A DNA stretch of 64,000 nt from an uncultured Candidatus Saccharibacteria bacterium (lineage in GTDB: Bacteria > Patescibacteriota > CAZHWT01). The position numbers were made by a program, and so were the translations under genes. This document shows positions 893-61,500 of this stretch, piece after piece; position 1 is the first letter of the stretch; every line of letters starts with the position of its first letter. The notes under the pieces are model-generated. The model was not told where the DNA came from. It was given only the letters and a program-made list of their open reading frames with translations, and did not search any database. The DNA is taken from contig CAZKPX010000003.1 in the NCBI GenBank assembly GCA_964554805.1, forward strand, positions 76,366 through 140,365. Reading direction: 5' to 3'.

Positions 893-1885
893 ATGAACAA
901 TCCTTTGGACAGTCGTAATTTTGAGGCTGGTGGATACGAGGCTTTGCCGCCCGTCGAGGAATATATCCCCGGGCCTGAATTTTATGTGCCAGCTCGAGAT
1001 GACGAACCCACTTTGTTGATGAGTCTTGGTTTGTCGGAGACACTGAAGACGGTCCAAAGTGAGGTTGATTTGATAGTCGAACAAGGTTGTGGTGTAGCAG
1101 TGGCGCATCATCCGAGATGGGGAGAGCGACCTCAGTTGCCGGTAGGAATTGAGGATTATTTGGCTAACATAGATGTTAATCTAGGTGGAGCAGCTGCTCA
1201 AAGACCGCTCAATATTCTGATGAATTTGATGGCCATTGACCGTCATAATCAGGAAAGTAGTGGTATTGCCTATACCGATCCAGCTGATCGAATTACAGTC
1301 AGTGGAGTCGGCCACTCTTTGGGCTGTATGGATCTTGTGGTGGCAGCTTTGCTGGATCCGGCCAGATTCCAAAGTTTAACCTTAGAGAACCCAGGTATTA
1401 TTGGGCAAGATAGTGAGGTCGCTTTGTACGCACGCTTTCTGTCTCAGTTGCATAAAAACTCGCCTTCACAGAATATGTGGGGCAGTCTCGATATAATGAA
1501 GAATCTTCCGAAATCCGTTGATGAAACATTTAGTGTGGCGAATTCTGATTTATTAGGGTTAATTTATAAGGTGCGTGAGGCGGGTGTGCCGATTTCGATA
1601 ATTATGGGGCAAAATGATCCGCTGTTTCCAGCGGATAGGATGTGGCAGAGAATAGCAGATCAGCATTACTGGATGAATGTGCTGGCCTATGATCAGGAAA
1701 GAAAATCTGTCGAGTTGCCGATAGATCGAGTAAGTGTTTATAGAGGAGCACATCACAATACTGGCCATCAGCGGCCGGAAGAGGCGGTGGAGTTGAGGCT
1801 GGATCATGTTAAGAGCTTGGCGGGCATACAGGGGCAGCGTGAGCCGGGAACATTCTTGCCTCAGAGGACCTATGTGAAGTCGTAG
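893..1885 (+). CDS. Hypothetical alpha/beta-hydrolase-like protein
   Basis: 330 aa. Contains GVGHSLGCMD, resembling the GxSxG nucleophile elbow of serine hydrolases and lipases. No other family signature recognised. Confidence 0.4.
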   Translation: MNNPLDSRNFEAGGYEALPPVEEYIPGPEFYVPARDDEPTLLMSLGLSETLKTVQSEVDLIVEQGCGVAVAHHPRWGERPQLPVGIEDYLANIDVNLGGAAAQRPLNILMNLMAIDRHNQESSGIAYTDPADRITVSGVGHSLGCMDLVVAALLDPARFQSLTLENPGIIGQDSEVALYARFLSQLHKNSPSQNMWGSLDIMKNLPKSVDETFSVANSDLLGLIYKVREAGVPISIIMGQNDPLFPADRMWQRIADQHYWMNVLAYDQERKSVELPIDRVSVYRGAHHNTGHQRPEEAVELRLDHVKSLAGIQGQREPGTFLPQRTYVKS

Positions 1886-1906
1886 AGCAAGCAGGGGTGT
1901 CGGAGG

Positions 1907-3256: not shown

Positions 3257-4346
3257 ATCTGAATTGTTGGTTCGAAGTGGACGAAGTTTGTTGGAGGGGG
3301 TGGAGTATTCGCTAGAGCGGTCGCTGCCGGTGAAGGGGACAATTTATGCCAAGCTTGGCGATGTGGTGAAGCCGGAGACGATTGTGGGCGAAGCTAAGGT
3401 GTCGGCTGGCTTTCGCGTGTTTAGCTTGGCCGATTATTTGAAGGTTCCGCCTAATCAGGTTAAGAAGTACCTGCACCGAACTATTGGTTCGCGAGTTTAT
3501 CAAGGGGACGTAGTGGCTGAAGCCTCTAAATTGTTTGGTAAAAAGCAATTTATTTCACCTATTGATGGTATGTTGCAGTCGTTTGATGTGGTGACCGGCC
3601 AGCTAACAATGCGATTTGCGCCGACCACCTATCGGTTGCCGGCTGGCGTTCGAGGTGAAGTCAGCCAGATTGTGCCTGAGCAGGCAGTCTACGTGAAGAC
3701 ACATGCCAGCTTATTGTTTGGGGCGTTTGGTAGTGGTCATATGCGAGAGGGAGCTTTGAAGCTGGTGGCACCGCCGGATCAACCAATTTCTGCTCAGTCT
3801 ATTGATGCCAAGCAGGCCGGTTATATTATTGGTGGTGGGTCGGGTATTACTCGAGACGCCCTCAATAGAGCATTGGCGGTGGGGGTAAAAGGGATTATTA
3901 CCGGGGGAATTGGTGCAGATGATTTGCTGGCAGTTAGTGGTGATTTGCATGGTAGTGAGGATGTTGGGTTGAGTTTGTTGATCACTTCGGGATTAGGTAA
4001 TCGGCCAATGGACGGGCAGGTGTATGCCTTTTTGGAAAAGTATAAAGAGCAGCAAGTCTATTTATTGCCGAAGCAGATGATAGTGCTGGCTCCATTGCCG
4101 TTGTCGAGCGATATGACGGTTAATAAGATGGGTAGTTTGCCGGATGCTTATGGTCAGCTGGAGGTGGGTCAGCGGGTGCGGATTTTGACTGGGGCTTTGT
4201 TGGGTGAATCAGCTTTGGTTAAAGGCGTGGTTGAAGAAATGACCATTGTGGGCAGCAAACTCAAGATGGCTCATTGTTTGTTGGAGCGTCAGAATGGTGA
4301 TACAATACATATTCCGATAACTAATATTGAGCTATTGTCCGAGTAA
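3249..4346 (+). CDS. Hypothetical protein with a KOW-like C-terminal segment
   Basis: 365 aa. Overlaps the upstream gene by 8 nt, so probably an operon. The C-terminus (GQRVRILTGALLGESALVKGVVEEMTIVGSKLKMAHCLLERQNGDTIHIPITNIELL) resembles a NusG-type KOW motif. Confidence 0.3.
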   Translation: MAKSELLVRSGRSLLEGVEYSLERSLPVKGTIYAKLGDVVKPETIVGEAKVSAGFRVFSLADYLKVPPNQVKKYLHRTIGSRVYQGDVVAEASKLFGKKQFISPIDGMLQSFDVVTGQLTMRFAPTTYRLPAGVRGEVSQIVPEQAVYVKTHASLLFGAFGSGHMREGALKLVAPPDQPISAQSIDAKQAGYIIGGGSGITRDALNRALAVGVKGIITGGIGADDLLAVSGDLHGSEDVGLSLLITSGLGNRPMDGQVYAFLEKYKEQQVYLLPKQMIVLAPLPLSSDMTVNKMGSLPDAYGQLEVGQRVRILTGALLGESALVKGVVEEMTIVGSKLKMAHCLLERQNGDTIHIPITNIELLSE

Positions 4347-7114: not shown

Positions 7115-7142
7115 GCTGAATACACTCGACTCTCGGTCGAGT

Positions 7143-7178
7143 GACGGGCGACGGGCGACGGGCGACAAGCGACGAGCG
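7143..7178 (+). repeat. (GCGACR)n hexanucleotide microsatellite, intergenic copy
   Basis: acgggcgacgggcgacgggcgacaagcgacgagcg. Preceded by the hairpin cactcgac-tctcg-gtcgagtg. Confidence 0.85.
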
Positions 7179-8348: not shown

Positions 8349-8396
8349 TGAGGAGGAACAGGGAGGAGGAACAGGGGGGAGGAGCAGGGGGAAGAG
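8349..8396. repeat. Purine-rich (GAGGAGGAACAGG)n tract between prfA and prmC
   Basis: gaggaggaacagggaggaggaacaggggggaggagcagggggaagag. Same family as 386-478. Confidence 0.7.
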
Positions 8397-9936: not shown

Positions 9937-10027
9937 GAGCGACGAGAACGAGCGACGAGCGACGGCTGGGATTCAATTCTCCCAGTTTCCTGCCAGCCAG
10001 GCCCGTCGCCCGTCGCCCGTCGCTCGA
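9937..10027. repeat. Inverted pair of (GCGACR)n arrays forming a long imperfect hairpin
   Basis: Forward gagcgacgagaacgagcgacgagcgacggctggg at 9937-9970 and reverse cccgtcgcccgtcgcccgtcgctcg at 10002-10027, with a central ctggga...tcccag hairpin. Confidence 0.75.
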
Positions 10028-16792: not shown

Positions 16793-16855
16793 AAAAGGAG
16801 GAGTGAGGAGGACAAGTGAGGAGGAGAAGTGAGAAGGAGAAGTGGGGAGGGGGAG
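16793..16855. repeat. Purine-rich (AAGTGAGGAGGAG)n tract after the stop codon
   Basis: gaaaaggaggagtgaggaggacaagtgaggaggagaagtgagaaggagaagtggggagggggag. Confidence 0.7.
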
Positions 16856-18364: not shown

Positions 18365-19183
18365 ATGTTTATGGAACCTGAATTGGTTTTGACTTTACTT
18401 AAAATTGCTGGAGTGTTTGTTGGATTGAGTTTTATAGTGTTTTGGGTGGGGTTGGTGTGGTGGGTTAGTCAGGATGTGACGAGTCGGACAAATGACAAGA
18501 TTATATTGGCGGCGGCCGTGGCTTTTGCGACTATCTTTGGACCGGTGGGGGTGCTGCTGTATTTGATTGTTCGGCCTAGACAGACTATCAAAGAGAGCTA
18601 TCGGGAGATGCTTGAAACAGAGATAAATCGTAAGCTGGCCTCGATGGATATGGCTTATTGCCCATTTTGTGGGGCTAATTTGGAGCGTGACGCACATGTG
18701 GCGCATCCGGATCAACTAGTGATGACTGAAATAGAAGAGCAGGTTGTGTATGATCCTCAGATTGCTGAACAGGCTATGGTTGGACGCAGCAAAACGAAGT
18801 TGCCTCAGACGCGCAAAGTCGTTGATGGGGGCAAGCTGTTGAGTGTTCGTGTTAGTCGGAGTGTGGTGTCGATGACGAAAGCTACGGCTAAGGGATTGAC
18901 CTTTTTGCTAACTCCGTTGCCGGCTCAGGAGAGGACTGATGCTAGCGACGAGCGGCTAAGTACTGGCGACGGGCGACGGGCGACGGGCGACGAGGTGAAA
19001 ACAAAAACTACTGGCGACGAGGTGAAAACGAAAAATACTGGTGACGGGGTGGATGTTGTTGTTGAGGAGAATGGGGGTGGGGGGAAGCAGGTTGAGTTTG
19101 CGCAAAAGTCTCGTCCGGTGACTAAGAAGAAGGCTGCTAGTAAGTCAGCTAGTCGAAGTGGAGCGCGTCGTGGTAAGAAATAG
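18365..19183 (+). CDS. Hypothetical membrane protein with zinc-ribbon-like motif and a repeat-encoded C-terminal tail
   Basis: Two N-terminal TM helices and a CPFCGAN Cys pair. The C-terminal 80 aa are low complexity, encoded by (GCGACG)n (ATGDGRRATGDE) plus a 27-nt tandem repeat (TGDEVKTKT x2.5). Confidence 0.45.
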   Translation: MFMEPELVLTLLKIAGVFVGLSFIVFWVGLVWWVSQDVTSRTNDKIILAAAVAFATIFGPVGVLLYLIVRPRQTIKESYREMLETEINRKLASMDMAYCPFCGANLERDAHVAHPDQLVMTEIEEQVVYDPQIAEQAMVGRSKTKLPQTRKVVDGGKLLSVRVSRSVVSMTKATAKGLTFLLTPLPAQERTDASDERLSTGDGRRATGDEVKTKTTGDEVKTKNTGDGVDVVVEENGGGGKQVEFAQKSRPVTKKKAASKSASRSGARRGKK

Positions 19184-20507
19184 CGCTGGGCGAGCGACGG
19201 GCGACGGGCGACAGGCGACGAGTGTTGATGAGCTTGATTCTCGGGTGGTGGCTGAAAAGCTTGATAATGGTTTGCCGGTGCTGTTGCAGCCAATGGAGGC
19301 TGTGCCGTCGACGGCGGTATTGGTGTTGGCGAAGGTTGGGTCTCGGAATGAGCAGCAAGCTGAGGCCGGGGTGGCTCATTTTGAAGAGCACATGGTATTT
19401 AAAGGCACCAAAACTAGGCCGACTACTTTGGATATTTCGGCAATTGTTGATGGGTTGGGTGGGGAATTTAATGCTTTTACTAGCAAGGATTACACCGGAT
19501 TCTATATTAAGACTGCCGCCAAAGACTCGTCAGTGGCGGTTGAGTTGTTGGCTGATATTTTGTTTGACTCCAAATTTGACCAGGCCGAAGTGGATAATGA
19601 GCGTCAGGTGATCATCGAAGAGATGAATATGTACCAGGACACACCACGCGATCGAGTGGGTGAGTTGTATGACAATTTATTGTATGGCGACCAGCCCTTG
19701 GGCCGAGATATTATCGGCACCAAAGATAGCCTGATGTCGATCCAGTCGGAACAGTTAAAAGCTTTTAATAAGAAATGGTATGGTAGCGATAATCTGTTGG
19801 TCAGCGTGGCCGGATCGATGGATTCGTCGGCTATGCTGTCATTGGTTGATACGCATTTTGGTGGACGGACAGCGGGTTGCGTTGATGCGTTAACTCCGAC
19901 GACCTTTAGTCAGGATGCGCCGGCTATGCAGGTTGTGCAAAAGGAAACCGATCAGACTCATGTGGTGGTGGGGGTGCGGAGTTTTGCGGCTATGGATGAT
20001 CGACGACAGGCTTTGTCATTGCTCAACATTATTTTGGGTGGCAATATGTCGTCTCGGTTATTTATTGAGGTCAGAGAAAAGCGCGGTCTGGCGTACGCGG
20101 TGCATTCGTCTATTGATTCATATACAGATGTGGGGGCTTGGTCATGCCAGCTGGGTTTGGATCATAGTCGACTAGGCGAAGCTTTGTCGGTGGTTTTGGA
20201 GCAAATGGCTTCGATTCGCGATAAGGGCATTGATCAAAAAGAGTTGGACCGAGCCAAGAGTTTTGTGCGTGGTCGGATGGCATTGTCGCTTGAAGATCCG
20301 TTGAGCTTGAATATTTTTGCGGCTAAGCAGCAGTTGCTGTATGACAAGCTGGAAACTGTTGATGAGTTGTTGGCTAAAATGGAAGCTGTGACAGCGGAGC
20401 AAATTCAGGCGGTGGCTGATGATATATTTGTTGGTCAGGGGTTGAATATGACTGTGATTGGACCAAAAGCGGATGAAGAAGATTTGCGTCGTCGGTTAGT
20501 GCTCTGA
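19158..20507 (+). CDS. M16-family zinc peptidase (pitrilysin/insulinase-like, inverted HxxEH)
   Basis: GVAHFEEHMVFKGT is the HxxEH zinc motif, with a second E further on and the typical two-domain length. The extreme N-terminus overlaps the previous gene and is encoded by a (GCGACR)n copy, so the true start is probably later. Confidence 0.8.
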   Translation: MERVVVRNSAGRATGDGRQATSVDELDSRVVAEKLDNGLPVLLQPMEAVPSTAVLVLAKVGSRNEQQAEAGVAHFEEHMVFKGTKTRPTTLDISAIVDGLGGEFNAFTSKDYTGFYIKTAAKDSSVAVELLADILFDSKFDQAEVDNERQVIIEEMNMYQDTPRDRVGELYDNLLYGDQPLGRDIIGTKDSLMSIQSEQLKAFNKKWYGSDNLLVSVAGSMDSSAMLSLVDTHFGGRTAGCVDALTPTTFSQDAPAMQVVQKETDQTHVVVGVRSFAAMDDRRQALSLLNIILGGNMSSRLFIEVREKRGLAYAVHSSIDSYTDVGAWSCQLGLDHSRLGEALSVVLEQMASIRDKGIDQKELDRAKSFVRGRMALSLEDPLSLNIFAAKQQLLYDKLETVDELLAKMEAVTAEQIQAVADDIFVGQGLNMTVIGPKADEEDLRRRLVL

Positions 20508-28550: not shown

Positions 28551-29292
28551 GAAGGCTAAGGGTGCGACGAGCGACGAGCGACGAGCGACGGGAATAGATG
28601 GTGAGGTTATAGCTCTGGTTTTGCCGCCGGTGCTGTATGAGGATGATGCGATAATGGTGCTCAATAAGCCGGCTGGGTTGGTGGTTGAGAAGAGCCATAC
28701 TCATTCGCAGGTAACCTTGCAGGATTTATTGCCGTTTGCTGATGAGGTGGATAGGGCTGGTTTGGTGCACCGGCTTGATCGAGATACGTCCGGAGTAATG
28801 GTAGTGGCAAAGACTAATGACAGTCAGGCTGCGCTGCAAAAGCAATTTTTGGAACGAACTACTGATAAAGAGTATATGGCTTTGGTGTGGGGTAAATTGG
28901 CAGATGATCATGCTGTCATTAATGCGCCGATTGCCCGTCATCCCAAGATTGGCTATAAATATGTGGTAATGGACGGTGGGCGGGATGCTAAGACTGAATT
29001 TTGGCGGCTTGGCGAGTATAAACTAGCCGATGATGTAGCAAGCTTGATTAAAGTAGATCTTCATACTGGTCGGACACATCAGATTCGGGTTCATATGATG
29101 GCCATGGGCCATGCTTTGGTTGGTGATACAGTCTATGGTCGTCGAAAGGATAAATCTGCAATTCGACAATTTCTGCATGCCTCGAAGCTCAGCCTGCAAC
29201 ATCCAGCCACCGGGAAGACCATGACCTTTGAGGCACCGCTGGCTGATGATTTGCAACGATTTTTGGATGGCTTGAAGCAGACGAATGAGTAG
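28534..29292 (+). CDS. RluA-family pseudouridine synthase
   Basis: HRLDRDTSGVMVVAKT catalytic Asp motif, LYEDDAIMVLNKPAG. The N-terminal 25 aa are encoded by a (GCGACG)n copy (ATSDERRATG). Confidence 0.8.
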   Translation: MPARNKKAKGATSDERRATGIDGEVIALVLPPVLYEDDAIMVLNKPAGLVVEKSHTHSQVTLQDLLPFADEVDRAGLVHRLDRDTSGVMVVAKTNDSQAALQKQFLERTTDKEYMALVWGKLADDHAVINAPIARHPKIGYKYVVMDGGRDAKTEFWRLGEYKLADDVASLIKVDLHTGRTHQIRVHMMAMGHALVGDTVYGRRKDKSAIRQFLHASKLSLQHPATGKTMTFEAPLADDLQRFLDGLKQTNE

Positions 29293-29307: not shown

Positions 29308-30165
29308 GGTTGTGGTGGCAACTTCGGGTTGTGGCAACTCCGGGAGTTGCCATCTGGAGAAACACCGGTATAAGGCGGTGTTTTATTCGAGCAAAAGGTG
29401 CTTTATTGTTTCTAAGCTCTGTTGATATTTCGATCTGTTTTTAAGATAGCTGCGATAGCTTGTTGGATGATTGGGGTTGGAGTTGAATTGATTGAGAATA
29501 ATTTGTGGTTCGACGCTTACTGTGGGAGATGAGGTAGTCGACAGGTATCTGCCAACTGACGACCAGGGATAGTAATTGTTATCCTCTATATTTTTGACGA
29601 TATGAGATGATAGTGGGTTGAGGTGGATATATCGAGATAGATGAAATAGCTGTAATTCAGTTTCAACTAAAACCCCTTTAAACCTTCCTTGAAAGAGGCT
29701 GCCTGATCTGGAGTGTTTTTTATTTATATACTTAGCATAGCTATCTTGCCACATTGCTTGGAATCTCTCGATGCCGTTTGGACTCTCCTGCCGCAGCAAT
29801 AAATGATAATGATTAGGCATTAGAGCAAAAGCAATAATACTTATTTGGGGATGATTGTTGCTTTGTATTTGAGTATCAGCAGGTAGGCGAATATACTTAG
29901 AGTAGGGTAGCGGCTGATTCTGTAGTCGATAGTAGTCTAAGAGTCTAAGGCATCGCTGATAATCGGTGGAGTGAAAAAATATTGGTTGATGATCAACGCC
30001 TCTGTTGAAAATGTGATATATCTGGCTTTGGATGAGTGGTAGACGTCTTTTTGGCATTATGTTGTTTCTATACAGGGGGATAATTTGAAAGTCAACAGGC
30101 AGGCGTGTAAAAATGTGTGTTATGTGGTACCGGGGTTGTCTGAGTTGGCAACTCCCGGAGTTGCC
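29308..30165. mobile_element. REP-associated tyrosine transposase unit: IS200/IS605-like TnpA flanked by inverted 19-nt REP-like palindromes
   Basis: Left palindrome ggcaactccgggagttgcc at 29333-29351, preceded by the partial copy ggcaacttcgggttgtg. Right palindrome ggcaactcccggagttgcc at 30147-30165 is the exact reverse complement of the left one. Confidence 0.7.
29383..30057 (-). CDS. IS200/IS605-family Y1 (HUH) transposase, REP-associated tyrosine transposase-like
   Basis: HUH motif PNHYHLLL and a catalytic Tyr in RYIHLNPL. About 225 aa from the internal ATG at 30057. The 373 aa six-frame ORF is an upstream read-through. Confidence 0.75.
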   Translation of the reverse strand: MPKRRLPLIQSQIYHIFNRGVDHQPIFFHSTDYQRCLRLLDYYRLQNQPLPYSKYIRLPADTQIQSNNHPQISIIAFALMPNHYHLLLRQESPNGIERFQAMWQDSYAKYINKKHSRSGSLFQGRFKGVLVETELQLFHLSRYIHLNPLSSHIVKNIEDNNYYPWSSVGRYLSTTSSPTVSVEPQIILNQFNSNPNHPTSYRSYLKNRSKYQQSLETIKHLLLE

Positions 30166-30246
30166 TGGATGTTGGATTGGTTGCCTGTTGGGGTGGTATA
30201 CGGTACTATGAATAGTACAACCAGATGAGTAATCTGGGACTGTCCT

Positions 30247-31977
30247 ATGTTTTTGAATATTGATATAAGCTCTCCATTTTTTCAGTTTGGTGGGATGCTG
30301 GTGTTGGCATCGATAATTGGTTTGGTTTGTTATCGTCTGAAGAAGCCGTTGTTTTTTGCGTACCTGGCGACGGGGGTGTTGGTTGGTGTGGCCATGGGTG
30401 GCGACTTTGCTCATTCTGAAACAATTCACTTGTTCTCTGAATTGGGGATTGCTTTCCTGCTGTTCTTGATTGGGATGGAATTTAACCTGAAAGATATTCG
30501 GCATATCGGCAAAATCGGTTTGGTGGCTGGGTTAGGGCAGATCGCTATTGTCGGGACAATTAGCTTTAGCGTGGCGGTGTGGTTTGGTTTGGCTGTTTTG
30601 CCGTCTATTTATGTGGCTCTGGCCATGACTTTTGCCTCGATGGTTATTTCAGTTAAATATCTCAATGACCATCAAGCTACTGAAACGCTCTATGGCAAGG
30701 TGGATTTGATGATGCACTTGGTGCAGTCAGTGGTGGCTGTGTTGGCTTTGATGGTGTTGTCGACGGTGGCTGCTATTAATTGGCAGAGTCGGGGTGATAT
30801 AGCAGTCTGGGTGATAGATTTTGCGTTGTTGTTGACCAAGGGGGCGTTGCTGCTGGTGTTGTATATTTACCTTAGTCAGGCGGTTTTGCCAAAGATATTT
30901 AAGATGATGGCCGGATCGACAGAGCTATTGGTGTTGGGAAGTGTTGCCTGGTGTGTTTTTGGGGCCGGCTTGGCCTATGTGTTTGGGTTCTCGGTAGAAG
31001 TCGGCGCATTTTTGGCGGGATTAGCTTTGTCGAGTTCGGGGTATCAGTTTCAGGTGACAGCTCGAATTAAGCCAATTCGAGATTTTTTTGTGGTGGTGTT
31101 CTTTATTGGTCTGGGTATTCAAGTGACCAACTTTTCATTGTGGGAGGTGTTGTTGTCGGCCTTGGTGTTGAGCGCGGTGGTATTGGTATTGAATCCGTTG
31201 GTGTCGACGATTTTATTGAGCAGATTGGGCTACAAGCGACATACGGCTTTTTTTGCTTCGATTTTGATGAATCAGATTGGGGAATTTTCAGTTATTCTGG
31301 CGGCTTTGGGAGTTAGTTTGCATCATTTATCAGCCCAAGAGGGGTCTTTGATCACGACGACGGTGCTGTTGACGATGTTGGCTTCCAGTTATGTGATTGA
31401 TCATCAACAATGGGTTTATAAAAAGCTGCGTCCGTTGTTGGCTTGGTTGGAGCGGTCGGACGGTAAAGAGCTGAGGCTGCGCAAAAAGATCTGGAGTGAT
31501 CATGTGGTAGTGCTGGGCGCACATCGGCTGGGTAGTGATGTGTTGGATACATTGCGCAAGGGACGAGCTAAGATGTTGGTGGTGGATTATGATCCGGATC
31601 GGGTGGCCTTGCTTGAAGAAGATGGCTATGCGGTGATTTATGGCGATGCAGTGGATGAGAGTGTTTTGGAGGAGGCAGGTGTTTCCGCTGCTCGGCTGAT
31701 TATTTCAACTATTGATGATGATCCCTCTACGAGACAACTATTGAGAGAGCTGCGTCAGCAAAAAGTTGATGCGCCGGTGGTGGTGACGGCTACAACTATT
31801 AATGAAGCCTTGGATTACTACCGCTTGGGAGCAGCCTATGTTATCATTCCGATGCTTTTGGGTGGCAAGGCTATCACTCAAGTGGTTAAGGATCATTTGA
31901 GTGAAATTCATCCGTTGGAGCCGGCTAAGTTGCTTCATTTGCAGCATTTGGCGGCGGAGGGGTATTTGATGCGCTAG
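30247..31977 (+). CDS. Kef-type CPA2 monovalent cation/proton antiporter with C-terminal RCK/TrkA-N domain
   Basis: 12-13 TM helices, then the Rossmann RCK motif HVVVLGAHRLGSDV...DAVDESVLEEAGV. Confidence 0.8.
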   Translation: MFLNIDISSPFFQFGGMLVLASIIGLVCYRLKKPLFFAYLATGVLVGVAMGGDFAHSETIHLFSELGIAFLLFLIGMEFNLKDIRHIGKIGLVAGLGQIAIVGTISFSVAVWFGLAVLPSIYVALAMTFASMVISVKYLNDHQATETLYGKVDLMMHLVQSVVAVLALMVLSTVAAINWQSRGDIAVWVIDFALLLTKGALLLVLYIYLSQAVLPKIFKMMAGSTELLVLGSVAWCVFGAGLAYVFGFSVEVGAFLAGLALSSSGYQFQVTARIKPIRDFFVVVFFIGLGIQVTNFSLWEVLLSALVLSAVVLVLNPLVSTILLSRLGYKRHTAFFASILMNQIGEFSVILAALGVSLHHLSAQEGSLITTTVLLTMLASSYVIDHQQWVYKKLRPLLAWLERSDGKELRLRKKIWSDHVVVLGAHRLGSDVLDTLRKGRAKMLVVDYDPDRVALLEEDGYAVIYGDAVDESVLEEAGVSAARLIISTIDDDPSTRQLLRELRQQKVDAPVVVTATTINEALDYYRLGAAYVIIPMLLGGKAITQVVKDHLSEIHPLEPAKLLHLQHLAAEGYLMR

Positions 31978-32018
31978 GGCTGTCAAAGCGACAGGCGACA
32001 AGCGACAAGAACAAGCTA

Positions 32019-33245
32019 ATGGCATTTTTTACTATTTTGAAAACTGACACTAAAACCAAGGCTCGACGGGGAGTTATTTCGACGGAGCATGGCGATATTC
32101 AGACGCCGGCATTTTTTCCGGTGGGTACGCAGGGGACTGTTAAGTCATTGTCTCAGCAAGAGTTGTGGGATATGGGGGCGCGGTTGATTTTGGGTAATAC
32201 CTATCATTTATATTTGCGTCCGGGAGCTGATATTGTGGCAGAAGCGGGCGGTTTGCATGAGTTTCAGCAGTGGAAGGGGGCTTTGTTTACTGATAGTGGA
32301 GGGTTTCAGGTGTTTAGTTTGGGGTTGGGACTGGAGAATAAGCGACAGGCGACGAGCGACAGGCGACGAGAGGGGAGTCAGAAGGTGGATGCGATACGTC
32401 ATTTGCCTCAGGGGATGTTGGCTAAGGTGGATGAGGAGGGAGTAACTTTTAGGTCTCATTTAGATGGGTCGATTCATCGGTTTACGCCGGAGATTTCGTT
32501 GGCTACTCAGCATAAGATTGGCGCAGATATTATTTTGTCTTTTGATGAGTGTGCGCCGCATCCTGCCAGCTATGACTATACTCGTCAGGCAATGGAGCGA
32601 ACTCATCGATGGGCTAAGCGAGGACTTGATTATCATCAGGAGCATAAGCAGAGCCATCAGCATCTGTTTGGCATAGTGCAGGGTGGGGTGTATGAAGATT
32701 TGCGAGTGGCATCGGCCAAGTATATTGATAGCTTGGACTTTGATGGGTATTGTGTCGGCGGAGTATCAGTAGGGGAGTCTAAGGAGGAAATGGACAGGGC
32801 AGTTCGCTGGACCACGCCTTTGCTCGACCCGAGCAAGCCTCGACACTTGTTGGGAGTGGGGGATATTGATGATATGTTCAGAGGGGTGGAGCAGGGCATT
32901 GATACCTTTGATTGTGTGACACCGACTCGGTGGGGGCGCAATGGGACATTGATTGTTCACCCTGAAACAGCCAAAGAAGAAGGTTCGGCCAATCCGTATC
33001 GACTGATTATTACTAATAATAAATATCGAAATGACTTCCGACCGCTTGATCCACGCTCCGACAACTGGGCCAGTCGCACCTATAGCCGAGCTTACCTGCA
33101 CCATTTGTTTAGGGCTAGTGAAATCTTGGGTGTGCGGATTGCTTCTTATCATAATGTGGCGACGATGTTGCAGTTGGCTGAAAAGATGAGAGCCAGCCTA
33201 GAGGATGATAGTTGGGATGCTTTGAAGAAGGAATATTTGGTATGA
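32019..33245 (+). CDS. tgt: Queuine tRNA-ribosyltransferase with a repeat-encoded insertion and a degenerate zinc site
   Basis: Conserved motifs [27 protein letters not shown] and [9 protein letters not shown]. A 28 aa insert ([18 protein letters not shown]) is encoded by (GCGACR)n at 32335-32372. The CxCxxC zinc ligands are replaced ([11 protein letters not shown]). Confidence 0.85.
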   Translation: [408 protein letters not shown]

Positions 33246-34878: not shown

Positions 34879-37575
34879 ATGTTGTTATTAATTTTGGCAC
34901 TGTTTATTACCGGCACCATTTGTGTGGCATGGACTGTGGCTGGTAGACGAGTAGATGAGGATAAGGAGCCGCAAGAAGTGGTGGAAGGTACCTTGCTGTC
35001 TATTTTGGTGCCAAAAGAGAATGATAAGTCGCCAATGTCAGCTGAAATGATGTTTGCCTCACTGCATGGCTTGTTAAAGAGAACTCCTGGTTTGGAAGAA
35101 CATTTAAGTTTTGAAATTGTGGCCAACAACGACGGTATTCGGTTTTTTGTTTATTTGCCGTCGTATTTCCGAACTTTTGTCGAGGGCCAAATTTATGCTC
35201 AGTATCCCAACGCCAATATAGTTGAGGTAGAGCAAGATTATGCCAAGCACTTTTCGTCTGAGAAGGCTGTGGTGACTGCGGCTGAAATCTCTTTGAGTAA
35301 GGAGTATTTTTATCCTATTAAGACCTTTGTTGATTTTCAGGTTGATCCCTTGGCGGCCGTTACCGGAGCGGTGGAGAGATTGGAAGAAGGCGAGCAGGTT
35401 TGGATTCAGCTACTGCTTCGACCGCTGGACGATGTCTGGCAAGAAGCAGGTTACGCTTATGTAGAAAAAGTTAAAGCCGGTAAAAAAGAGTCACAAGATG
35501 GTTTTTTGATGGCTATTGTGAAGGGCGTGATGGGGGAGCTGGGTATGAATTTGCCGGGAACCGCTTTTGGGATGACGCCAGCTGAAGGGGCTGCTGCAGA
35601 TAAAAAGCCCGAAGGGCCAAAGTTGACGGCTGGTCAAGAGCTGGAGTTGAAGGCTATAGAAAATAAGATGACTAAGCTGGGCTTTGAAACTGCTTTGCGA
35701 ATTGTGGCAGTGGGCGAGACCGCTCAAGCTTCTCAACAATCACTTAATTCAGTTATTGCCTCGCTACGTCAATTTTCGATGACTCATCTTAATAGTTTTA
35801 AGTTATCCGAATTGGATCGAAGTGCCGAAGAGATTTTTTATGAATATCAAGCTCGATCTTTCCCGATTGATGAAGAGAGCTTCTTTGTCTTGAATGCTGA
35901 AGAAGTAGCTTCTATTTTCCATTTGCCAAATAGCTCAGTTGAAACGCCGACTATTGCCTGGAGCAAGTCTAAGCAGCTCGAGCCACCATTAAATCTGCCT
36001 CAAGATGTAAATACTGTCTTTGCTAAAACTGCTTTCCGGAATCGATCGGTACCGTTTGGTATACAGCGCGAGGATCGTCGTCGTCACATGTATATGATCG
36101 GAAAGACCGGTACTGGTAAGTCGACCTTGATGGAAAATATGATTATGCAGGATATTTTGGCTGGTGAAGGTTTGGCCATTATGGATCCGCATGGCGATAC
36201 TATTGATCGATTGCTGGACAATATTCCAGAGCACCGAATCAAAGATGTGGTGTTGTTTGACCCATCAGACACAGCGCATCCGGTCAGCATGAACATGTTA
36301 GAGATGATTAATGAGGAGCAGAAGAGCGTTATGGCTTCGGCCTTGGTGGATGTGTTTAAGCGGCGTTTTGACTCTTGGGGGCCTCGACTTGAATATTTGC
36401 TGCGTAATTCTATTTTGACATTGCTGGAAGTGCCAAATACGACTCTATTGGGCATTAATCGATTGTTGATTGATAAAGAGTATCGCAAATATATTGTGAG
36501 CTTGATCGAAGATGAGCAGTTGCGGAATTTTTGGAATAAAGAGTATGCGACCATGGCCTCTAATGATCGATTGATCACCGAAGCTGTAGCTCCGATTCAA
36601 AACAAGGTAGGTCAGTTCTTGCAGACGCCGATTATCCGCAATATTGTCGGTCAGGCCAAGTCGACTATTCGGGTTGAGGATATTATTAATGAGAATAAGA
36701 TTTTCTTGATTAACTTGTCCAAGGGTAAAATCGGTGAAGATAACTCGTCGATGTTGGGTGGAATGATTATTTCTCGCCTGCAGAATGCGGCCATGGCTCG
36801 AGTGAATATTCCCGAAGATCAACGTAAAGACTTTTATGTGTATGCTGATGAGTTCCAGAACTTTGCTACGTCCAGCTTTGCCACGATTTTGTCTGAGGCT
36901 CGTAAGTATCGTCTTAATCTGATTATCACTCACCAATATATTAGCCAGATGCCAGATGAGGTGCGGGAGGCTGTGTTTGGTAACGTTGGGACAACCGTTT
37001 CCTTTACGGTCGGACCAAGTGATGCGACGGTGCTGGCTAGTCAGTTTGCACCAGTATTGCAACCTGAGGATATGGTGCGGCTGGAGAAGCATCATATCTA
37101 TGTTAAATTGATGATTGATGGTATGGAGTCTCGTCCATTTAGTGCCTCGACTTTGCCGCCGATTGCTCGCCACGAAGGCCATAAAGCGGCTATCATTGAA
37201 GCTTCTAGGCTTCAGTATGCACCTAAAACAGCGGCTGAAGTGGAGGAGCGAATTGCCAAGTGGAATATGAAGAAGTTCCAGATTGGGGTAGACGATGTAT
37301 CGGTTAAGCGGATGCGAGATGGTTCGCGCGCAAATGCAGAAGAGGTCAAGGCATCTTCATTGCCAGCTAGTACAGATTCTATCATGCCTCCTCGTCACGA
37401 GCGAGTTATTGGGGCAGGTGGAGCAGAAGCACCTACGGTAGTCACCCCAACTATCATTCGGGGAGTTCCAGGTGGCGTTGGTCATACAACCGTTGTTCGG
37501 CATGTGGCCACTTCCGGATCTAGCGGCGAAATCATCTTGAATAATTCAATTAATCACACAGATACACCACAGTAG
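34879..37575 (+). CDS. VirD4/TraD/TraG-like (type IV coupling protein family) P-loop ATPase with N-terminal TM anchor and a roughly 400 aa unknown N-terminal domain
   Basis: Walker A MIGKTGTGKSTLMEN followed by IMDPHGD. Walker B FYVYADEFQNF, then ARKYRLNLIITHQYISQM (T4CP-type C-motif). One N-terminal TM. Confidence 0.55.
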   Translation: MLLLILALFITGTICVAWTVAGRRVDEDKEPQEVVEGTLLSILVPKENDKSPMSAEMMFASLHGLLKRTPGLEEHLSFEIVANNDGIRFFVYLPSYFRTFVEGQIYAQYPNANIVEVEQDYAKHFSSEKAVVTAAEISLSKEYFYPIKTFVDFQVDPLAAVTGAVERLEEGEQVWIQLLLRPLDDVWQEAGYAYVEKVKAGKKESQDGFLMAIVKGVMGELGMNLPGTAFGMTPAEGAAADKKPEGPKLTAGQELELKAIENKMTKLGFETALRIVAVGETAQASQQSLNSVIASLRQFSMTHLNSFKLSELDRSAEEIFYEYQARSFPIDEESFFVLNAEEVASIFHLPNSSVETPTIAWSKSKQLEPPLNLPQDVNTVFAKTAFRNRSVPFGIQREDRRRHMYMIGKTGTGKSTLMENMIMQDILAGEGLAIMDPHGDTIDRLLDNIPEHRIKDVVLFDPSDTAHPVSMNMLEMINEEQKSVMASALVDVFKRRFDSWGPRLEYLLRNSILTLLEVPNTTLLGINRLLIDKEYRKYIVSLIEDEQLRNFWNKEYATMASNDRLITEAVAPIQNKVGQFLQTPIIRNIVGQAKSTIRVEDIINENKIFLINLSKGKIGEDNSSMLGGMIISRLQNAAMARVNIPEDQRKDFYVYADEFQNFATSSFATILSEARKYRLNLIITHQYISQMPDEVREAVFGNVGTTVSFTVGPSDATVLASQFAPVLQPEDMVRLEKHHIYVKLMIDGMESRPFSASTLPPIARHEGHKAAIIEASRLQYAPKTAAEVEERIAKWNMKKFQIGVDDVSVKRMRDGSRANAEEVKASSLPASTDSIMPPRHERVIGAGGAEAPTVVTPTIIRGVPGGVGHTTVVRHVATSGSSGEIILNNSINHTDTPQ

Positions 37576-41559: not shown

Positions 41560-41939
41560 CAGCTAACCTCCGAGGTTCGGCGGTTAGGGCGACGAGCGAC
41601 GAGTACGCTTTGGGTATTTATCTGGGATAAGGGTGGGGAATAGAGGAGTTAATTGGCAGGGGGTGGGGAAGAGCGATAACTCATAGTTTTGTACTATAGG
41701 ACATATTTTCCATAAAAGTGAGCGTGGAAAGTTAATTTTGTGGATATCTTGGTTGAATGGAAGAAGTGAGCAGGAGGAGAAAACAGGGAAAAATGATACA
41801 GTATGATGCAGTTGGGTGAAGGATATTGAGGCGGAGTGGAGTGAGAGGGGTGATTGATAACGATTATTGATAATTGCTATAGGTCTTCTTTTAACAAGGA
41901 TTGAGCTCAAGGGCGCAATCTAGGCAAGTTATGAATATA

Positions 41940-43080
41940 CTATAGGGTATTTGTTTACTCAAAAAAAGAGTGGTGACTGGAGAGAGTGGAAGTGGTGGAT
42001 AGGGGTAAAAAAATTGGCAAAAATTTGGATGAATTTGGCTTTGACTGGGCAGATAAGGCGAAAATAAACGAAATTTTTGGGAAAATTTTACGAATTTTGA
42101 GGCTAAAACCTAAAATTTGTCAGGACGATAGGTGGACTGCTAATGATAAGCGTATGGATGAGGATATATGGAGCTGATCGACTGGCTGATTAGATAGTTT
42201 AGTTGAGGCTAAAACTCGATTTAGGGGCTCAGGTGTAGGAAGAGTTGGGCCGCATTAGGAATGAATTTTATGGTGGATTGGTATATGGTGGACCTCTCTC
42301 GCTCTGCTGGCGGCCGAGAGAGGTGGTCTTGTAGCCTACTACACGTCTCTAAAGATACATTTAAAGACGTCTTATTTAATTTCACAAATCAGCTCTCCCC
42401 TATGGATTTTGTTACATACAAGACTGCAAATATTTACTAAAATTTTCGATACTATTTGGCCTTTCTGCGGCTGGTCCACTAGCCTCAAAATGCTGTATCT
42501 GAAAAATTATCGAAATTTTGCCAATCTGTTCCCTATTTGAGGCTAAGCTTCGGTAATTTGGGTGATCGTTGTGCGAATTTGTGGCTAATTTAGGCCGTTT
42601 TGCCCGACCTCTCTCCCCTGCTCGGCAGCTTTTAGCAGGTAATACTGCCCTGGTGCTGGCAATTTTAGGCACAACTGGCAGGCTGGTCGTCTTGCCTGCC
42701 AAGGGGTTGCGCAGGGGGATGGTTACCAAAGCTTGTTAAGAGCTTTGGTGAGTGACGGGCGACGGGCGACGAGAGGGTGTGTGGATAGTAGGATTTGGGC
42801 TGTTTTTTATTCGGGATGCGTATCAACACGTCGCTTGTCGCACGTCTCTGGATTTTTTAGCCTTGTGACAGCTAAATTAGGTAGCGAGGCGCTAGAAGGG
42901 GTCTAGATGGCGTTTTGGTAATTTAGACCTTTCAATATACCTATTTGGTTTTAATTTGAGTGGCATATTCTCCTGCATGTATGAATTATGATGATTTTGA
43001 GACATGAGACATGCCTAGCTGACCTCCGGAAGTGTCTGAGATCGCTTGCATCTTGACGGCTGACGCTTTACCCTAGATAC
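41940..43080. other. 1.1 kb non-coding stretch upstream of the recombinase, carrying at least 6 copies of a TTTGAGGCTAA(AAC) motif in both orientations plus short hairpins
   Basis: ttgaggctaaaac at about 42105 and 42203, tagcctcaaaatg at about 42481, ttgaggctaagc at about 42537, related ggctaatttagg and ggcaattttagg, hairpin cctctctcg...cgagagagg at 42292-42322. Only weak small ORFs. Confidence 0.5.
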
Positions 43081-53257: not shown

Positions 53258-54757
53258 TTAGAGCATGGGTAATGGTTTGGTCGAAGCGTTTCTGGCCATT
53301 TGATGATAAGCTTGATTGTCTATTTGTGGTGGCGACCAGTCTACCAGCTCCTGAGGAGAAATCGGTCTGCCAAGCCAAGCAGTAGCCTGTTCTTGGTCAT
53401 GCAGCAGTTCGTAGGCTTGACCATTTTTGAATACAATCATAGGTAGGCCAAAGAACTGGGCTGTTTCGGCTATGTTTTGCATGGTTATGGACCTCAGATT
53501 ATCCCGTTCGGCTAATCCGCGTTGCCAGAGGATATCGGTCATGGCGATAGACTGGTCTTGATTTAGGTTAACCATAGGAGCTTGGTCGAGATTGACAAAA
53601 GTCGCTGCAACCCGTGTTTGGCTGACTATGACTTCGTTGTATCTCTGTTTTGATCCCTGGGCTAGAGCTGCTGATAGTCTCTGCTGATATTCTTCAACTG
53701 ACCCAACACTGGTCGTCCTTCGATTCTCTTGGGTGGCTTGACTGCCTTTGTCGAAAGCGGCTGCATCCTCGATTGTTCCGCTGTTGAGAACCAGGCCGAA
53801 ATTATCCCACAGCTGAATCCGACTGTCGCCCGAACCTGGTCGGAAGGTTGAGGCGCAGATAGAAGGGTTTTGGGTCAAGAGGTAGGCTATTCTTTCCTGG
53901 TAGCTACTTTGATTATTGATATTCTGGTTGTTGCCGAAACCAATATCGAATTCTGGTTTGACTGCATGGACTATATAGTGACCGTTGGCTAGAACAAGAG
54001 ACTCCAGGCTGCCGTGAGCCTGTTTGTACTCTTCAAGCTGATGGCGGTTGTATTGTTTTTTCTGATCGACTTTCCAACCAAGCGCAATCTGTTGATAGTA
54101 TTGGTCGAGATAGGCTTGGCTATCAGCGTAAAATGATTGCTGGTTAGCTTTAATTCTCTGTAATTCTTCATGATAGTAGGCGGTTCTATACAATTCTTGC
54201 TTGATGCCCGCTTGATGTTCTAGGGTGCTGGCTTGTTTTTGTGATTCGGCCAGGGCTTGCCGGTGTTCTTCGATAGGAAAATTACGGAACTTGTCCATTA
54301 TCCGCTTGACCAGGCTGGTTTCATGGTCTTGAATGAGATTGCTGATCTCGGCGGCTTGCTGCTCATATGCCAGCTTTTCGTTTCGGATAGTCTCCAGAGT
54401 ATCTCTATCCTGTTGTGACTGGCTCTGTATGCTCTGCTCGCGCCTGCGATCTTGAGCTCTGTCTCTGCGCATCGTTTGCAGCCTTTGGGCTACGTCATTA
54501 CGAGAAACTGGGCCAGCATAGACGCCTTGGTACAGGCTATCCTGCTCTTTAGAGAACTGGCGCAGCTGGTTTTTGGAAGGTTTAGGGATAGAATGTTGCG
54601 ATTCGCGATTCATGATGAAGTAAGTGCGTTTTAAGTTTAGCATGCCAACCGAGTCGGAGTCAGTTGTTGCTGTGCTTTTTGACAGACTGATATAAATTTG
54701 GGTAGTTATGACCTGCTTCTTTGTTGCCAAGTAGGGGCAACAGAAGTACAATGACAC
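53258..54757 (-). CDS. Hypothetical Gln-rich protein
   Basis: Long ORF with coiled-coil-like Q/E/R-rich middle section. No motif recognised. Start probably at an internal Met (MLNLKRTYF or MNRESQH). Confidence 0.35.
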   Translation of the reverse strand: MSLYFCCPYLATKKQVITTQIYISLSKSTATTDSDSVGMLNLKRTYFIMNRESQHSIPKPSKNQLRQFSKEQDSLYQGVYAGPVSRNDVAQRLQTMRRDRAQDRRREQSIQSQSQQDRDTLETIRNEKLAYEQQAAEISNLIQDHETSLVKRIMDKFRNFPIEEHRQALAESQKQASTLEHQAGIKQELYRTAYYHEELQRIKANQQSFYADSQAYLDQYYQQIALGWKVDQKKQYNRHQLEEYKQAHGSLESLVLANGHYIVHAVKPEFDIGFGNNQNINNQSSYQERIAYLLTQNPSICASTFRPGSGDSRIQLWDNFGLVLNSGTIEDAAAFDKGSQATQENRRTTSVGSVEEYQQRLSAALAQGSKQRYNEVIVSQTRVAATFVNLDQAPMVNLNQDQSIAMTDILWQRGLAERDNLRSITMQNIAETAQFFGLPMIVFKNGQAYELLHDQEQATAWLGRPISPQELVDWSPPQIDNQAYHQMARNASTKPLPML

Positions 54758-58559: not shown

Positions 58560-58570
58560 GGGGGGGGGGG
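58560..58570 (+). repeat. G11 homopolymeric tract in the translation-initiation region of the giant Cys-repeat protein
   Basis: atgcgctac followed by 11 G, then tgcttctcggcc. The ATG at 58551 is in frame 0, the long ORF in frame 1. One additional G, or a loss of two G, would fuse the ATG to the ORF. Confidence 0.8.
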
Positions 58571-61500
58571 TGCTTCTCGGCCTGGTTTTTCTTGGACTGC
58601 TTGGTTTTGTCTGGTTGTCTAGTGTGTCTCCGACTATTTCTCTGACTAAAACTGTTTTTCTGGCTTCGGAGTCTGTAACGGCTGTGATGGCCCATGCCTC
58701 TGCTGATAGACTGAAGGCTGAGGTGGTGACCAGTGATGGGGATAAGACGGGCCTGGCGGTTGAGGTGACGGCCTCTGGCTCGGATGCTCTGTTGACGATT
58801 CCGGCTTTGCGGGCGTTGACCCCGGGTGGGTATGTGCTAAAGGTGACGGATGCTGCTGGCCGCCAGTATAGTCAGGATTTCTCTTGGGGTGTTTTGGCGC
58901 TCAATATGACCAAGTCGGTGTATGCTTCCGGAGAGACGGTTGAGGTGCAGATGGCGGTTTTGAATCAGCGCGGGGCGATGGTGTGTGATGCTGAGGTCAG
59001 GCTGGTTATTACCTCGCCGACCGGCAAGAGTCAAACGCTTTCGACAACCGAGGATCGCATAAAGGTTAATCCATCCTGCACAGTTAAAGATTTTACTGAG
59101 GAGCCTGATTATGAGGCTTCGTTTGAGGTGGCGGAGCCGGGGCGCTATGATTTGAAGTTGACGGCGGTGACGGCTGATGATTCATTTACCATTACTGATA
59201 CTTTGACGGTTCAGCAGCCAGTTGCCGATCCGCTGATTATTACCCGACAGTCGGCCACCCGCATTTATCCGGTTAATACCTATCCGGTTCATATGACGGT
59301 GACAACCACTGAGGATTTTAACGGAACTATTACCGAGACAGTCCCCTACTCTTTTGAGATTTCACCATTGGAGGAGACTGTCTCTTATTCGTACGAACAG
59401 TTTAACCGTAAGGGCGCAGTTAACGAACAATACAAGCAGCTGCACTGGCAGGATGTGTCACTAAAAAAAGGTCAGTCTATAACCCTAGGCTACCAGTATG
59501 ACGCGCCCAATGAGTCGCCTAATTTCTTTCTAGCCGGACCACTGAGTGCTACCACCTCCGACCTCCAATCTCCTGCCTCCTATTTCACCGAACCCCGCTC
59601 CTGGCAAATAGCCGTCGACGCTGTGCTGACGGCTATTGAGCAGCAGATTACTATTACGAATCAAGCCTACCAAACCAACTCCCAATCCCCTGCGCCGACG
59701 GATAATTCATTGGGGTTGGTGCAGTGGGATGAAGCTGCTTATTCTAATGCGGAGGTGTATTTGGAGGCTAGGCTTGGACAGCAGCAGTCCGCTCCTTATA
59801 TGGGGGATATAACCAGTCATGCGACCATGGATTGTCCAGCGGCTGATGATTGTAAGATTGCTTATTATGATGCTGTGGGAGGAGATCTGCGATTTAGGGA
59901 TTGTGACGATGCTGTCTGCTCGACTGGAACGATAGTACTGCTTGATGGTAATGTGGGGTGCGTCATGGCCAATTGTTCCACCATAGCCAATGTGGGGCAG
60001 TTTGCTTCTATAGATTGTCCAGCGGCTGATGATTGTAAGATTGCTTATTATGATACAACCAATCAGGATTTGCGCTTTATTGATTGCAATGATGGGACTT
60101 GCTCGACGGGGACTAATGCATTGCTGGACGGTCGGGCAGGGTGTGTGTTGACTGGGTGTGCCGCTTCGGGGGATAGGGGGGCTGGCGTTTCTATCGACTG
60201 CGTTGCCTCTAGTGACTGCAAGATAGCTTACCAGGATACAACCTCAACGGCGCTGCGTTTTGCTGACTGTAATACAGCTGGCTGTAGTTCGGGTGTGGTG
60301 TCGTTGTTGGATGGTGTTGCTGGGTGTGTGTTGACTGGGTGTGCCACACTTGGTTCAAGTGGCCAGTATCAGTCGATTCGTTGTCTGGCCACAGATGACT
60401 GTAAGATTGCTTACTATAGCGCAACCCTTCAGCATCTCCGCTTTGCCGATTGTGATACCGCCAACTGTAGTGCTGGTACGGTGGTAGAAATAGATGGATC
60501 TGCAGGATGTGTGTTGGAAGGATGTTTGACTAACAATATTGGAATGTATGTTTCGATGGATTGTTTGGCTACCGATGACTGTAAGATTGCTTATTATGAT
60601 ACTACTGGATCTGATCTGAGATTTGCTGATTGTGATACTGCAACCTGTTCTTCCGGCTTTTCGACATTGATTGATGGAGGGGCTGGATGTGTTCTTTCGG
60701 GATGCGTAAACACAAATACCCTGGGTCGGTATCCAGATATCAGCTGTGTTGCTAGTGACGATTGCAAGATCAGCTATGGTCATTATAGTAGCTTCTTGTT
60801 TACTTATAGCACGCTACTATTTGCTGACTGCGATACTTCCAGTTGCTCGTCTGGCTCTGTCTCAATTTTGGATAATCGAGGATCGTGCGTTTTGACCGGG
60901 TGCAATCCCAGCACCACAGGCTCGCAGGCAACTAATAGTTCGATCATCTGTATGGCTAGCGATGATTGCAAAGTGAGTTACACTAACCCCCACTTCGACA
61001 GTCTCCATTTTGCTGACTGTAGCGCGGCTAATTGCTCATCCGGACAGACGACTTTGGTGGATGGAGCATATAAGCCATTCATGCTCGGGCGACCAAGTAT
61101 GAGCTGCCCCCAGTCGGATAACTGCAAGATTATTTACCTTACGAATTCAAAAAGGGACGGCTCAGAGCGCTTGCTGAAATTTAAGGATTGTGATGATGTT
61201 CAATGTGATACTGGAACAATCGTGGTTCTGGACGGTGCAATGAGTTGCATGTTAGATAATTGTTCTGATAGCCGGAGAGTTGGTCAGAATATGTCTTTAG
61301 ACTGTCCTAGCTCTGCTAATTGCAAAATTACTTACTATGATGAGACTAACATGGAATTACGATTTGTCAATTGTAACGGTGAGGTTTGTGGGGCAGGAGC
61401 GACAATCTTGATTGACGGTGGCCCTGACTGCGCCTTGGCTAATTGTGTGTCTGGTCAAGATATTGGTGATTTCCCTGCGCTTGATTGCCCGACTGCAGAT

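Follow-up and report, generated by a model that had tools for sequence, protein, structure and literature searches.

Bacterial tRNA guanosine(34) transglycosylase (Tgt), a drug target in Shigella, is a textbook zinc enzyme, and the question raised by the gene studied here is whether a member of this family could work without the metal. The four zinc ligands of Tgt, a CxCxxC triad followed by a His, have been called absolutely conserved across the three domains of life (PMC3074131), and the subdomain that holds them mediates dimerisation and contributes to tRNA binding (PMC5699537). Yet the tgt gene found in a 64-kb stretch of DNA from an uncultured Candidatus Saccharibacteria bacterium (contig CAZKPX010000003.1; the whole stretch is hereafter called the window) encodes a protein in which the three Cys are replaced. 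We consider it probable, at around 70%, that this protein is a functional, zinc-independent Tgt ortholog, the former zinc subdomain of which was re-stabilised by nearby substitutions.

Loss of the zinc cysteines in a tgt ortholog

The window protein (408 amino acids, aa) reached 473.3 bits with TIGR00430, the equivalog model of bacterial Tgt (curated cutoff 306.75), and 435.6 bits with the Pfam TGT model (PF01702; cutoff 26.3); with the archaeal/DpdA-like model (arcTGT) it scored 107.7 bits, so that the cutoff of 350 was not reached. A phmmer comparison with all PDB chains gave E-values of about 1e-97 for TGTs of the Zymomonas mobilis (Zm)/Escherichia coli type (EC 2.4.2.29; PDB 1PUD, 1Q2R), the best one being 9e-98 with Z. 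mobilis, and identity to these enzymes is 41-42%. The AlphaFold2 (AF2) model has a predicted local distance difference test score (pLDDT) of 91.8 and a predicted template modelling score (pTM) of 0.90, and Foldseek aligned it with Zm TGT at a template modelling (TM) score of 0.93-0.95 and a root mean square deviation of 1.3-1.8 Å. The predicted fold is thus that of the known enzymes, an irregular (beta/alpha)8 barrel to which a C-terminal subdomain is tightly attached. The pLDDT of the former zinc subdomain is about 98, a value to be read knowing that the input was a 120-sequence alignment composed mostly of Cys-containing homologs and that AlphaFold confidence cannot tell a metal-free from a metal-bound fold.

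In the phmmer alignment, the segments C318-H-C320-A-V-C323 of Z. mobilis and CDCYTC of E. coli face S347-D-N349-W-A-S352 of the window protein, in which the YSRAYLHHL helix comes directly after SDNWAS. Our main homolog set comprises the best 120 sequences out of 5.8 billion clusters: CxCxxC is present in 118 of them, and the only two Cys-less members are the window Tgt and a relative from run DRR438448 (P0002). The fourth ligand, H378, is kept. The window protein has three Cys in all (C178, C245 and C299), all outside the subdomain, and no other Cys/His cluster able to rebuild a zinc site was found in it. The replacement of the three Cys by Ser, Asn and Ser, first noticed in a sequence-only reading of the window, is therefore borne out by both the PDB and the 120-sequence alignments. 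That reading had named two observations that would speak against it, replacement ligands nearby and a frameshift; neither was found in the motif region, and stops occur in both other reading frames across the motif, which argues against a frameshift. With three Cys lost and no substitute Cys/His cluster, folding without the canonical zinc, one of the two options that it had raised, is the most likely situation for the window Tgt as judged from these alignments.

P0002, the second Cys-less gene, is 78% identical to the window Tgt and is an independent gene with the same SDNWAS. At positions 347, 349 and 352 the codons are TCC, AAC and AGT in the window, TCT, AAT and AGT in P0002, and TGC at all three positions in a Cys-containing relative (P0014). 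At S347, D348 and N349, P0002 reads TCT/GAT/AAT against TCC/GAC/AAC in the window: the replacement residues have been kept through synonymous changes. The window gene itself is present in identical form in two Logan assemblies (runs SRR16798008 and SRR16798009) and in a 165-kb NCBI contig, and 21.2 kb of one assembled contig (L001) agree with the window at every base (0 mismatches). An artefact of sequencing or assembly is ruled out by these identical independent assemblies together with the different codons of P0002.

Comparison with related bacteria indicates how the Cys-less form arose. The order response regulator, pseudouridine synthase, Na+/H+ exchanger, tgt, LytR_C, DUF8128/TrwB-like ATPase, TPR, YebC, integrase is common to the window and to the contig (L004) that carries P0014, a Tgt with CxCxxC and 70% identity to that of the window. 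More generally, the Tgt of related Saccharibacteria-type bacteria (P0014, P0003-P0017, and P0004 from the metagenome-assembled genome (MAG) CAZHWT01) are 70-73% identical to the window protein and agree with it in gene neighbourhood and in the position of a variable loop, but, unlike it, all have C-x-C-W-V-C plus L374, Y381 and M387. The closest genome match, which is 72% identical and belongs to an uncultured Candidatus Saccharibacteria MAG, is Cys-containing as well. Scans of genomes and metagenome contigs brought no further Cys-less close relatives, the matches below this MAG being only 41-49% identical, and a search for Cys-less fragments with the C-terminal 101 aa alone yielded one candidate that shared words and nothing that scored. 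Whether relatives share the Cys-less form, a check proposed along with the first observation, can thus be answered positively for one close relative, the other 118 homologs having CxCxxC. A neighbour-joining (NJ) tree groups the two Cys-less proteins as a single clade, next to 15 relatives that have the Cys; because all outgroups have Cys too, the loss is, on this tree, derived and placed once, in the common ancestor of window tgt and P0002. Judged by its position and its family scores, the window gene is a tgt ortholog and not a paralog.

The active site is intact. The residues D92, S93, F96, D176, C178, Q221, G247, G248, V251 and D298 (D102, S103, Y106, D156, C158, Q203, G229, G230, V233 and D280 in Z. 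mobilis) are unchanged with respect to the homologs, and D92, S93, D176, Q221, G247/G248 and D298 are identical in 117-118 of 118 of them. This agrees with the initial description of the catalytic Asp motifs, LFTDSGGFQ and FDCVTPTR, as preserved. C178 and V251 make the pocket one of the preQ1 type, as in Z. mobilis, and not of the eukaryotic queuine type, which has V and G at these places, the pair that also appears in Zm mutant structures named C158V/V233G. The ratio of nonsynonymous to synonymous substitution rates (dN/dS, method NG86) between window tgt and P0002 is 0.099 (dN 0.125, dS 1.26), an approximate value because such a dS is high, and it is 0.074 for a Cys-containing pair from the same group. 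Since all the divergence between the two Cys-less genes post-dates the loss, this ratio indicates that tgt stayed constrained, i.e. under purifying selection, after its ligands had gone. There was no acceleration of the rate either, since the distances of the Cys-less pair to the outgroups (0.446 and 0.449) fall inside the range of the Cys-containing relatives (0.433-0.470).

Triad-less Tgt in other bacteria

Absence of zinc had been thought, from the window sequence, to be unusual for the family. This holds in comparison with the literature only and appears overstated when a larger set of sequences is taken into account. An exhaustive HMMER search covered 1.84 billion representatives clustered at 50% identity; among the best 150, 133 were full-length, and 30 of these 133 lack the triad, whole groups of cultured bacteria included (two of the 30 have two or three Cys in another spacing). 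All three catalytic Asp are present in 31 of 32 Cys-less sequences, the window pair being counted, and the ten Cys-less forms that were tested all pass the TIGR00430 cutoff, with 386-481 bits, and carry the name Tgt in RefSeq. For an NJ tree of 142 sequences, about 19 state changes were needed under Fitch parsimony, a rough figure given the nature of the tree and the quick alignment beneath it. Named carriers of triad-less forms include Williamsia, Gordonia, Nocardia, Devosia (a cluster of 358 members) and Candidatus Kaiserbacteria. When a profile was made from four members of alphaproteobacterial type, its best matches, about 115 in number, all lacked the triad and belong to Xanthobacter, Roseixanthobacter, Rhodomicrobium, Aquabacter, Starkeya, Bosea, Methylobacterium, Methylorubrum and Prosthecomicrobium. 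An illustration is provided by Methylorubrum, the Tgt of which aligns without gaps with that of Z. mobilis: SDCPAAR...TWNN stands against CHCAVCQ...TEHN, so that three of the four ligands are gone.

The Cys-less Tgt of Hyphomicrobiales, to which Methylobacterium, Methylorubrum, Xanthobacter, Bosea, Starkeya, Rhodomicrobium and Devosia belong, of Mycobacteriales, with Williamsia, Gordonia and Nocardia, and of Ca. Kaiserbacteria resemble that of the window in being annotated as Tgt, in scoring above the family threshold and in combining intact Asp residues with a missing triad. However, they are only about 41-50% identical to it and represent independent losses, and the outcome differs: the Hyphomicrobiales have S-x-C-P-A-A-R and have lost the His (W-A/V/N/I-N), whereas the window protein has S/N/S and keeps it. 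The His ligand is also gone in about half of the other Cys-less lineages. One Cys-less representative (P0153) carries GHHHEHTSH exactly at the CxCxxC position, and this His-rich stretch could be an alternative all-His metal site. The solved TGT structures are all of Cys-containing enzymes, and the zinc is present in each.

Functional data exist for two Hyphomicrobiales species: the Tgt of Bartonella henselae is functional by complementation (PMC11570991) and that of Sinorhizobium meliloti (SMc01206) by mutant phenotypes (PMC3568095), zinc being unmentioned in both cases. Literature searches for loss of the zinc site in bacterial Tgt, or for a zinc-independent Tgt, returned no description. The window gene is a new example, of independent origin, of a form that databases contain in number and that has apparently gone undescribed. 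Because 30 of 133 representatives are without the triad and all ten tested pass TIGR00430, the zinc motif CxCxxC...H is, at the level of sequence, better treated as a common than as a defining feature of Tgt, and the window gene would be filed as a zinc-ligand-less variant.

The former zinc subdomain and competing explanations

We called pair-specific those residues that are common to both Cys-less proteins and absent, or nearly so, in the 15 close relatives. There are 19 such positions, ten of which (R341, L343, S347, N349, A351, S352, R353, I374, A381 and A387) lie within the 60-residue subdomain and nine in the other 326 positions (Fisher odds ratio 7, p = 1.2e-4), and in five control sister pairs the subdomain held only 0-2 positions of this kind. 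I374 stands for a Leu that is invariant in the 118 other homologs. Subdomain identity is 0.83 within the Cys-less pair, 0.59 between the pair and the relatives and 0.73 among the relatives, and the barrel, with an identity of 0.82-0.86 within the pair, shows no excess divergence between pair and relatives. The pattern read from these alignments is one of a burst of change on the stem branch, limited to the subdomain and followed by conservation. Because ten of the 19 pair-specific substitutions fall in the former zinc subdomain, it suggests local compensatory remodelling. Two barrel residues, R263 and R288, replace acidic or neutral ones and are absent, or nearly so, elsewhere; they were considered as possible substitutes for the zinc charge, and no claim is made for them.

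The scenario that we favour would then be as follows. The window Tgt would act on tRNAs with a GUN anticodon and exchange their G34 for a 7-deazaguanine base; the pocket residues point to preQ1 as the most likely one. The reaction would follow the covalent aspartate mechanism, with D298 as the nucleophile and D92 as the acid/base. In the common ancestor of window tgt and P0002 the Zn(Cys3His) site was lost through the changes of C to S, N and S, and the subdomain formerly stapled by zinc would have been re-stabilised by about ten nearby substitutions: repacking may be achieved by smaller hydrophobics (A351, I374, A381, A387), helped by new arginines (R341, R353) and by the polar Ser and Asn beside H378. 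The dimer-interface helix next to the subdomain would thereby be held in place. The data show that the ligands are gone, that the gene is an ortholog with an intact active site, that selection stayed purifying after the loss and that the changes are concentrated in the subdomain; that the protein is metal-free, folds and dimerises like other Tgt and is an active enzyme is what we infer.

Several points weigh against this scenario. Engineered ligand mutants of E. coli Tgt reportedly lose zinc and activity, and therefore a simple substitution would not be tolerated without compensation. The S/N/S solution is found in two sequences only. The AF2 model is driven by a Cys-dominated alignment, which makes it weak evidence and no proof of a metal-free fold, and the dN/dS ratio is approximate, as said above. 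The literature searches brought up no experiment on the window Tgt or on another Cys-less form, and the results for B. henselae and S. meliloti would bear on the matter only if the Tgt of these species carry the Cys-less motif. Finally, queA, queG/H, queC/D/E/F, YhhQ and genes for preQ1 synthesis or transport were not found in the 64-kb window, in which several open reading frames (ORFs) have no family match.

How probable are other explanations of the same data? One could imagine that the metal site was altered and not abolished, H378 binding a metal together with D348, N349, D344 or water, in which case the protein would be metal-dependent rather than metal-free. H378 is indeed retained and invariant, the two Cys-less genes share D348 and N349, and the His-rich replacement in P0153 suggests that alternative sites can evolve. 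But Ser, Asn and Asp with a single His make a poor set for tight zinc binding, D348 is no novelty, since CDC is found in Cys-containing relatives, and about half of the other Cys-less lineages are without the His too, which indicates that the ligand set is dispensable; we find this explanation unlikely, though it is the least unlikely of those competing with zinc independence. Another possibility is that the protein acquired a different base, nucleic-acid substrate or oligomeric state. This would fit with the concentration of changes in a subdomain that serves dimerisation and tRNA binding (PMC5699537) and with the failure to see other genes of the queuosine pathway in the window. A parallel is offered by DpdA of phage 9g, the one exception to ligand conservation that was met in the literature, a functional member of the TGT superfamily that modifies DNA and lacks two of the four zinc ligands (PMC5699537). 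DpdA, however, is only distantly related, a paralog whose pocket is of the archaeal type, whereas the window gene is the positional ortholog of canonical tgt, has unchanged pocket residues, C178 and V251 included, keeps the dimer hot-spot residues, falls far short of the arcTGT cutoff, evolves at an ordinary rate and has no dpd or DNA-metabolism cluster nearby. The suggestion of a diverged paralog with altered function, which was the second option raised in the sequence-only reading, is not borne out by synteny, the TIGR00430 score, the pocket residues, the ordinary rate and a dN/dS of about 0.10, and a new function seems to us improbable.

Slightly less probable still is that tgt is an inactive remnant, decaying since its zinc site was destroyed. 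One may invoke the reported inactivity of the E. coli ligand mutants, the reduced genomes of the Candidate Phyla Radiation (CPR) and, again, the partner genes not seen in the window. On the other hand, the ORF is intact in both lineages with all its catalytic residues conserved, the dN/dS of 0.099 was gathered after the loss, over a dS of about 1.26, no acceleration is observed, and, within the pair, conservation of the remodelled subdomain matches that of the barrel. As to wrong bases or a frameshift within the motif, the metagenome-derived source justifies a prior suspicion only, and practically nothing is left of it in view of the same sequence in both run assemblies and in the NCBI contig, of the same residues encoded by different codons in the 78%-identical gene, of the stops in the other frames and of the N349 change, which takes two nucleotide substitutions. 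A functional ortholog that became independent of zinc thus remains the best explanation.

Genomic context and implications

The features of the gene are collected in Table 1.

Table 1. Features of tgt and of its immediate surroundings in the window; Zm, Z. mobilis residue; TRF, Tandem Repeats Finder
Feature	Position	Strand	Basis or remark
GCGACNN heptamer array in the 41-nt spacer directly before the tgt start codon	31986..32016	+	TRF, pattern search
tgt, 408 aa, ATG to TGA	32019..33245	+	bacterial tRNA guanosine(34) transglycosylase ortholog
D92-S93 (Zm D102-S103), catalytic/guanine-pocket residues in LFTDSGGFQ	32292..32297	+	identical in 118/118
Length-variable surface loop, aa 103-133, ~31-aa insertion relative to Zm/E. 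coli	32325..32417	+	unaligned in PDB comparison
GCGACNN heptamer repeat inside the loop	32341..32370	+	TRF period 14 (2 x heptamer), 2.1 copies, 100% match
D176-E177-C178 (Zm D156, C158), substrate recognition, bacterial preQ1-type Cys	32544..32552	+	alignment
D298 (Zm D280), predicted nucleophile, in FDCVTPTR	32910..32912	+	alignment
Former zinc-binding subdomain, aa 336-395, ten pair-specific substitutions	33024..33203	+	substitution clustering test
Former zinc knuckle S347-D348-N349-W350-A351-S352, replacing CxCxxC	33057..33074	+	PDB and homolog alignments
Helix with dimer-interface aromatics Y355, Y359, H362 (Zm W326, Y330, H333)	33081..33104	+	conserved as in homologs
H378, kept fourth zinc ligand (Zm H349)	33150..33152	+	invariant column, 120/120 sequences

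With the Z. mobilis and E. coli enzymes the window Tgt has in common the predicted fold, the catalytic Asp, the guanine/preQ1 pocket, the dimer aromatics and the ligand His; it differs from them by the replacement of three of the four zinc ligands, by the ten pair-specific subdomain substitutions and by a variable loop of 31 aa that follows the DSGGFQ strand. The loop is unrelated to the zinc question. It has a pLDDT of 47-74 in the AF2 model, varies in length and sequence, and is present in most homologs of CPR/Chloroflexi type; in P0002 it is short and without a repeat. It had been described as a 28-aa microsatellite-encoded insert: the insert is real, but only 29-30 nt of it, i.e. about ten loop residues, derive from a repeat (pattern hits at 32342-32367), and the rest is the length-variable loop of the clade. 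In the tgt of the Ca. Saccharibacteria MAG CAZHWT01, the same loop contains other repeats (L005, 10310-10401: AAACTCG x4.9 and CAGCAAGA x4). It appears that the loop tolerates repeat expansion and acts as an in-frame hotspot in the clade.

The heptamer GCGACNN is not confined to tgt. It has 31 hits in the window, against 1.84 expected, a number reached in 0 of 100 shuffles. Its arrays are found at 7141-7173, 9952-10023, 18945-18991, 19194-19219, 28564-28589, 31986-32016, 32341-32370, 41589-41600 and 42752-42848, mostly on the + strand and mostly between genes; some enter coding sequence, in the tgt loop and at the N-terminus of the pseudouridine synthase ORF. The window also has purine-rich tandem repeats with a 13-nt period (TRF; 392-461, 8352-8391, 16796-16850 and 63438-63498), for instance AGTGAACAGGAAC x5.4. 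A minus-strand ORF at 29383-30504, a place where the public annotation has no gene, weakly matches the domain of IS200-like Y1 transposases (PF01797; 24.9 bits, cutoff 23); it lies between the pseudouridine synthase and the Na/H exchanger, where the gap is about 950 bp. As the matching gap in L004 is only about 130 bp, this region is probably an insertion relative to L004. A link between the Y1 tyrosine transposase and the dispersed heptamers is conceivable.

Two genes downstream of tgt lies the DUF8128/DUF87/TrwB-type ATPase of 898 aa (34879-37575, + strand; 6398-9130 in L004), which is followed, in the window as in the relative, by a conserved protein without family match. No dpd or DNA-metabolism cluster occurs near tgt in the window, its neighbours being the Na/H exchanger, LytR_C and the TrwB-like ATPase. 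Elsewhere in the window are prfA, prmC, uppS, dnaB, efp, htrA, a ctp-type peptidase, an xerC/D-like recombinase, a class A penicillin-binding protein, rnhB and a Clp ATPase, and the tRNA genes amount to tRNA-Leu only. The proposal to look for queuosine salvage genes elsewhere in the genome could be followed within these 64 kb, where none was found, and literature searches on queuosine in Patescibacteria or Saccharibacteria returned nothing relevant. Long ORFs without family match are typical of CPR genomes. Here, those without a credible NCBIfam/Pfam match are found at 58570-63447 (+ strand, 1625 aa) and 53258-54757 (- strand, 499 aa), along with three ORFs of 330-449 aa at 893-4346 (+ strand); one of the long ORFs has a sub-threshold MutL match only.

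The notion of a zinc-less form that does the job of a zinc protein is familiar from the C-minus ribosomal proteins, FolE2 and QueD2, and the last of these belongs to the queuosine pathway, itself vulnerable to zinc starvation (PMC9894224). These, however, are separate paralogs, usually Zur-regulated, which exist alongside the zinc form, whereas the window gene is a positional ortholog. Because it occupies the ancestral tgt position, the comparison of gene orders argues for a change in place rather than for an added paralog. We see about even chances that loss of the zinc site is a recurrent, undescribed route in bacterial Tgt, of which the window pair would be a young example with identifiable compensation, offering a recipe of about ten substitutions for a metal-free form, and that this may have been an adaptive response to scarce zinc or to oxidative damage of Cys3His sites.

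This is one gene among many cases, and its value lies mainly in the general pattern and in the discrepancy between the literature and the sequence data. The window tgt is nevertheless a convenient natural experiment, since close relatives that have the Cys are 70-73% identical to it and the subdomain changes number only about ten. The maintenance of ligand-less orthologs under purifying selection would mean that the metal is dispensable for the Tgt fold if neighbouring residues compensate, and zinc-free forms of the enzyme may bear on how tRNA modification is kept up under metal limitation.

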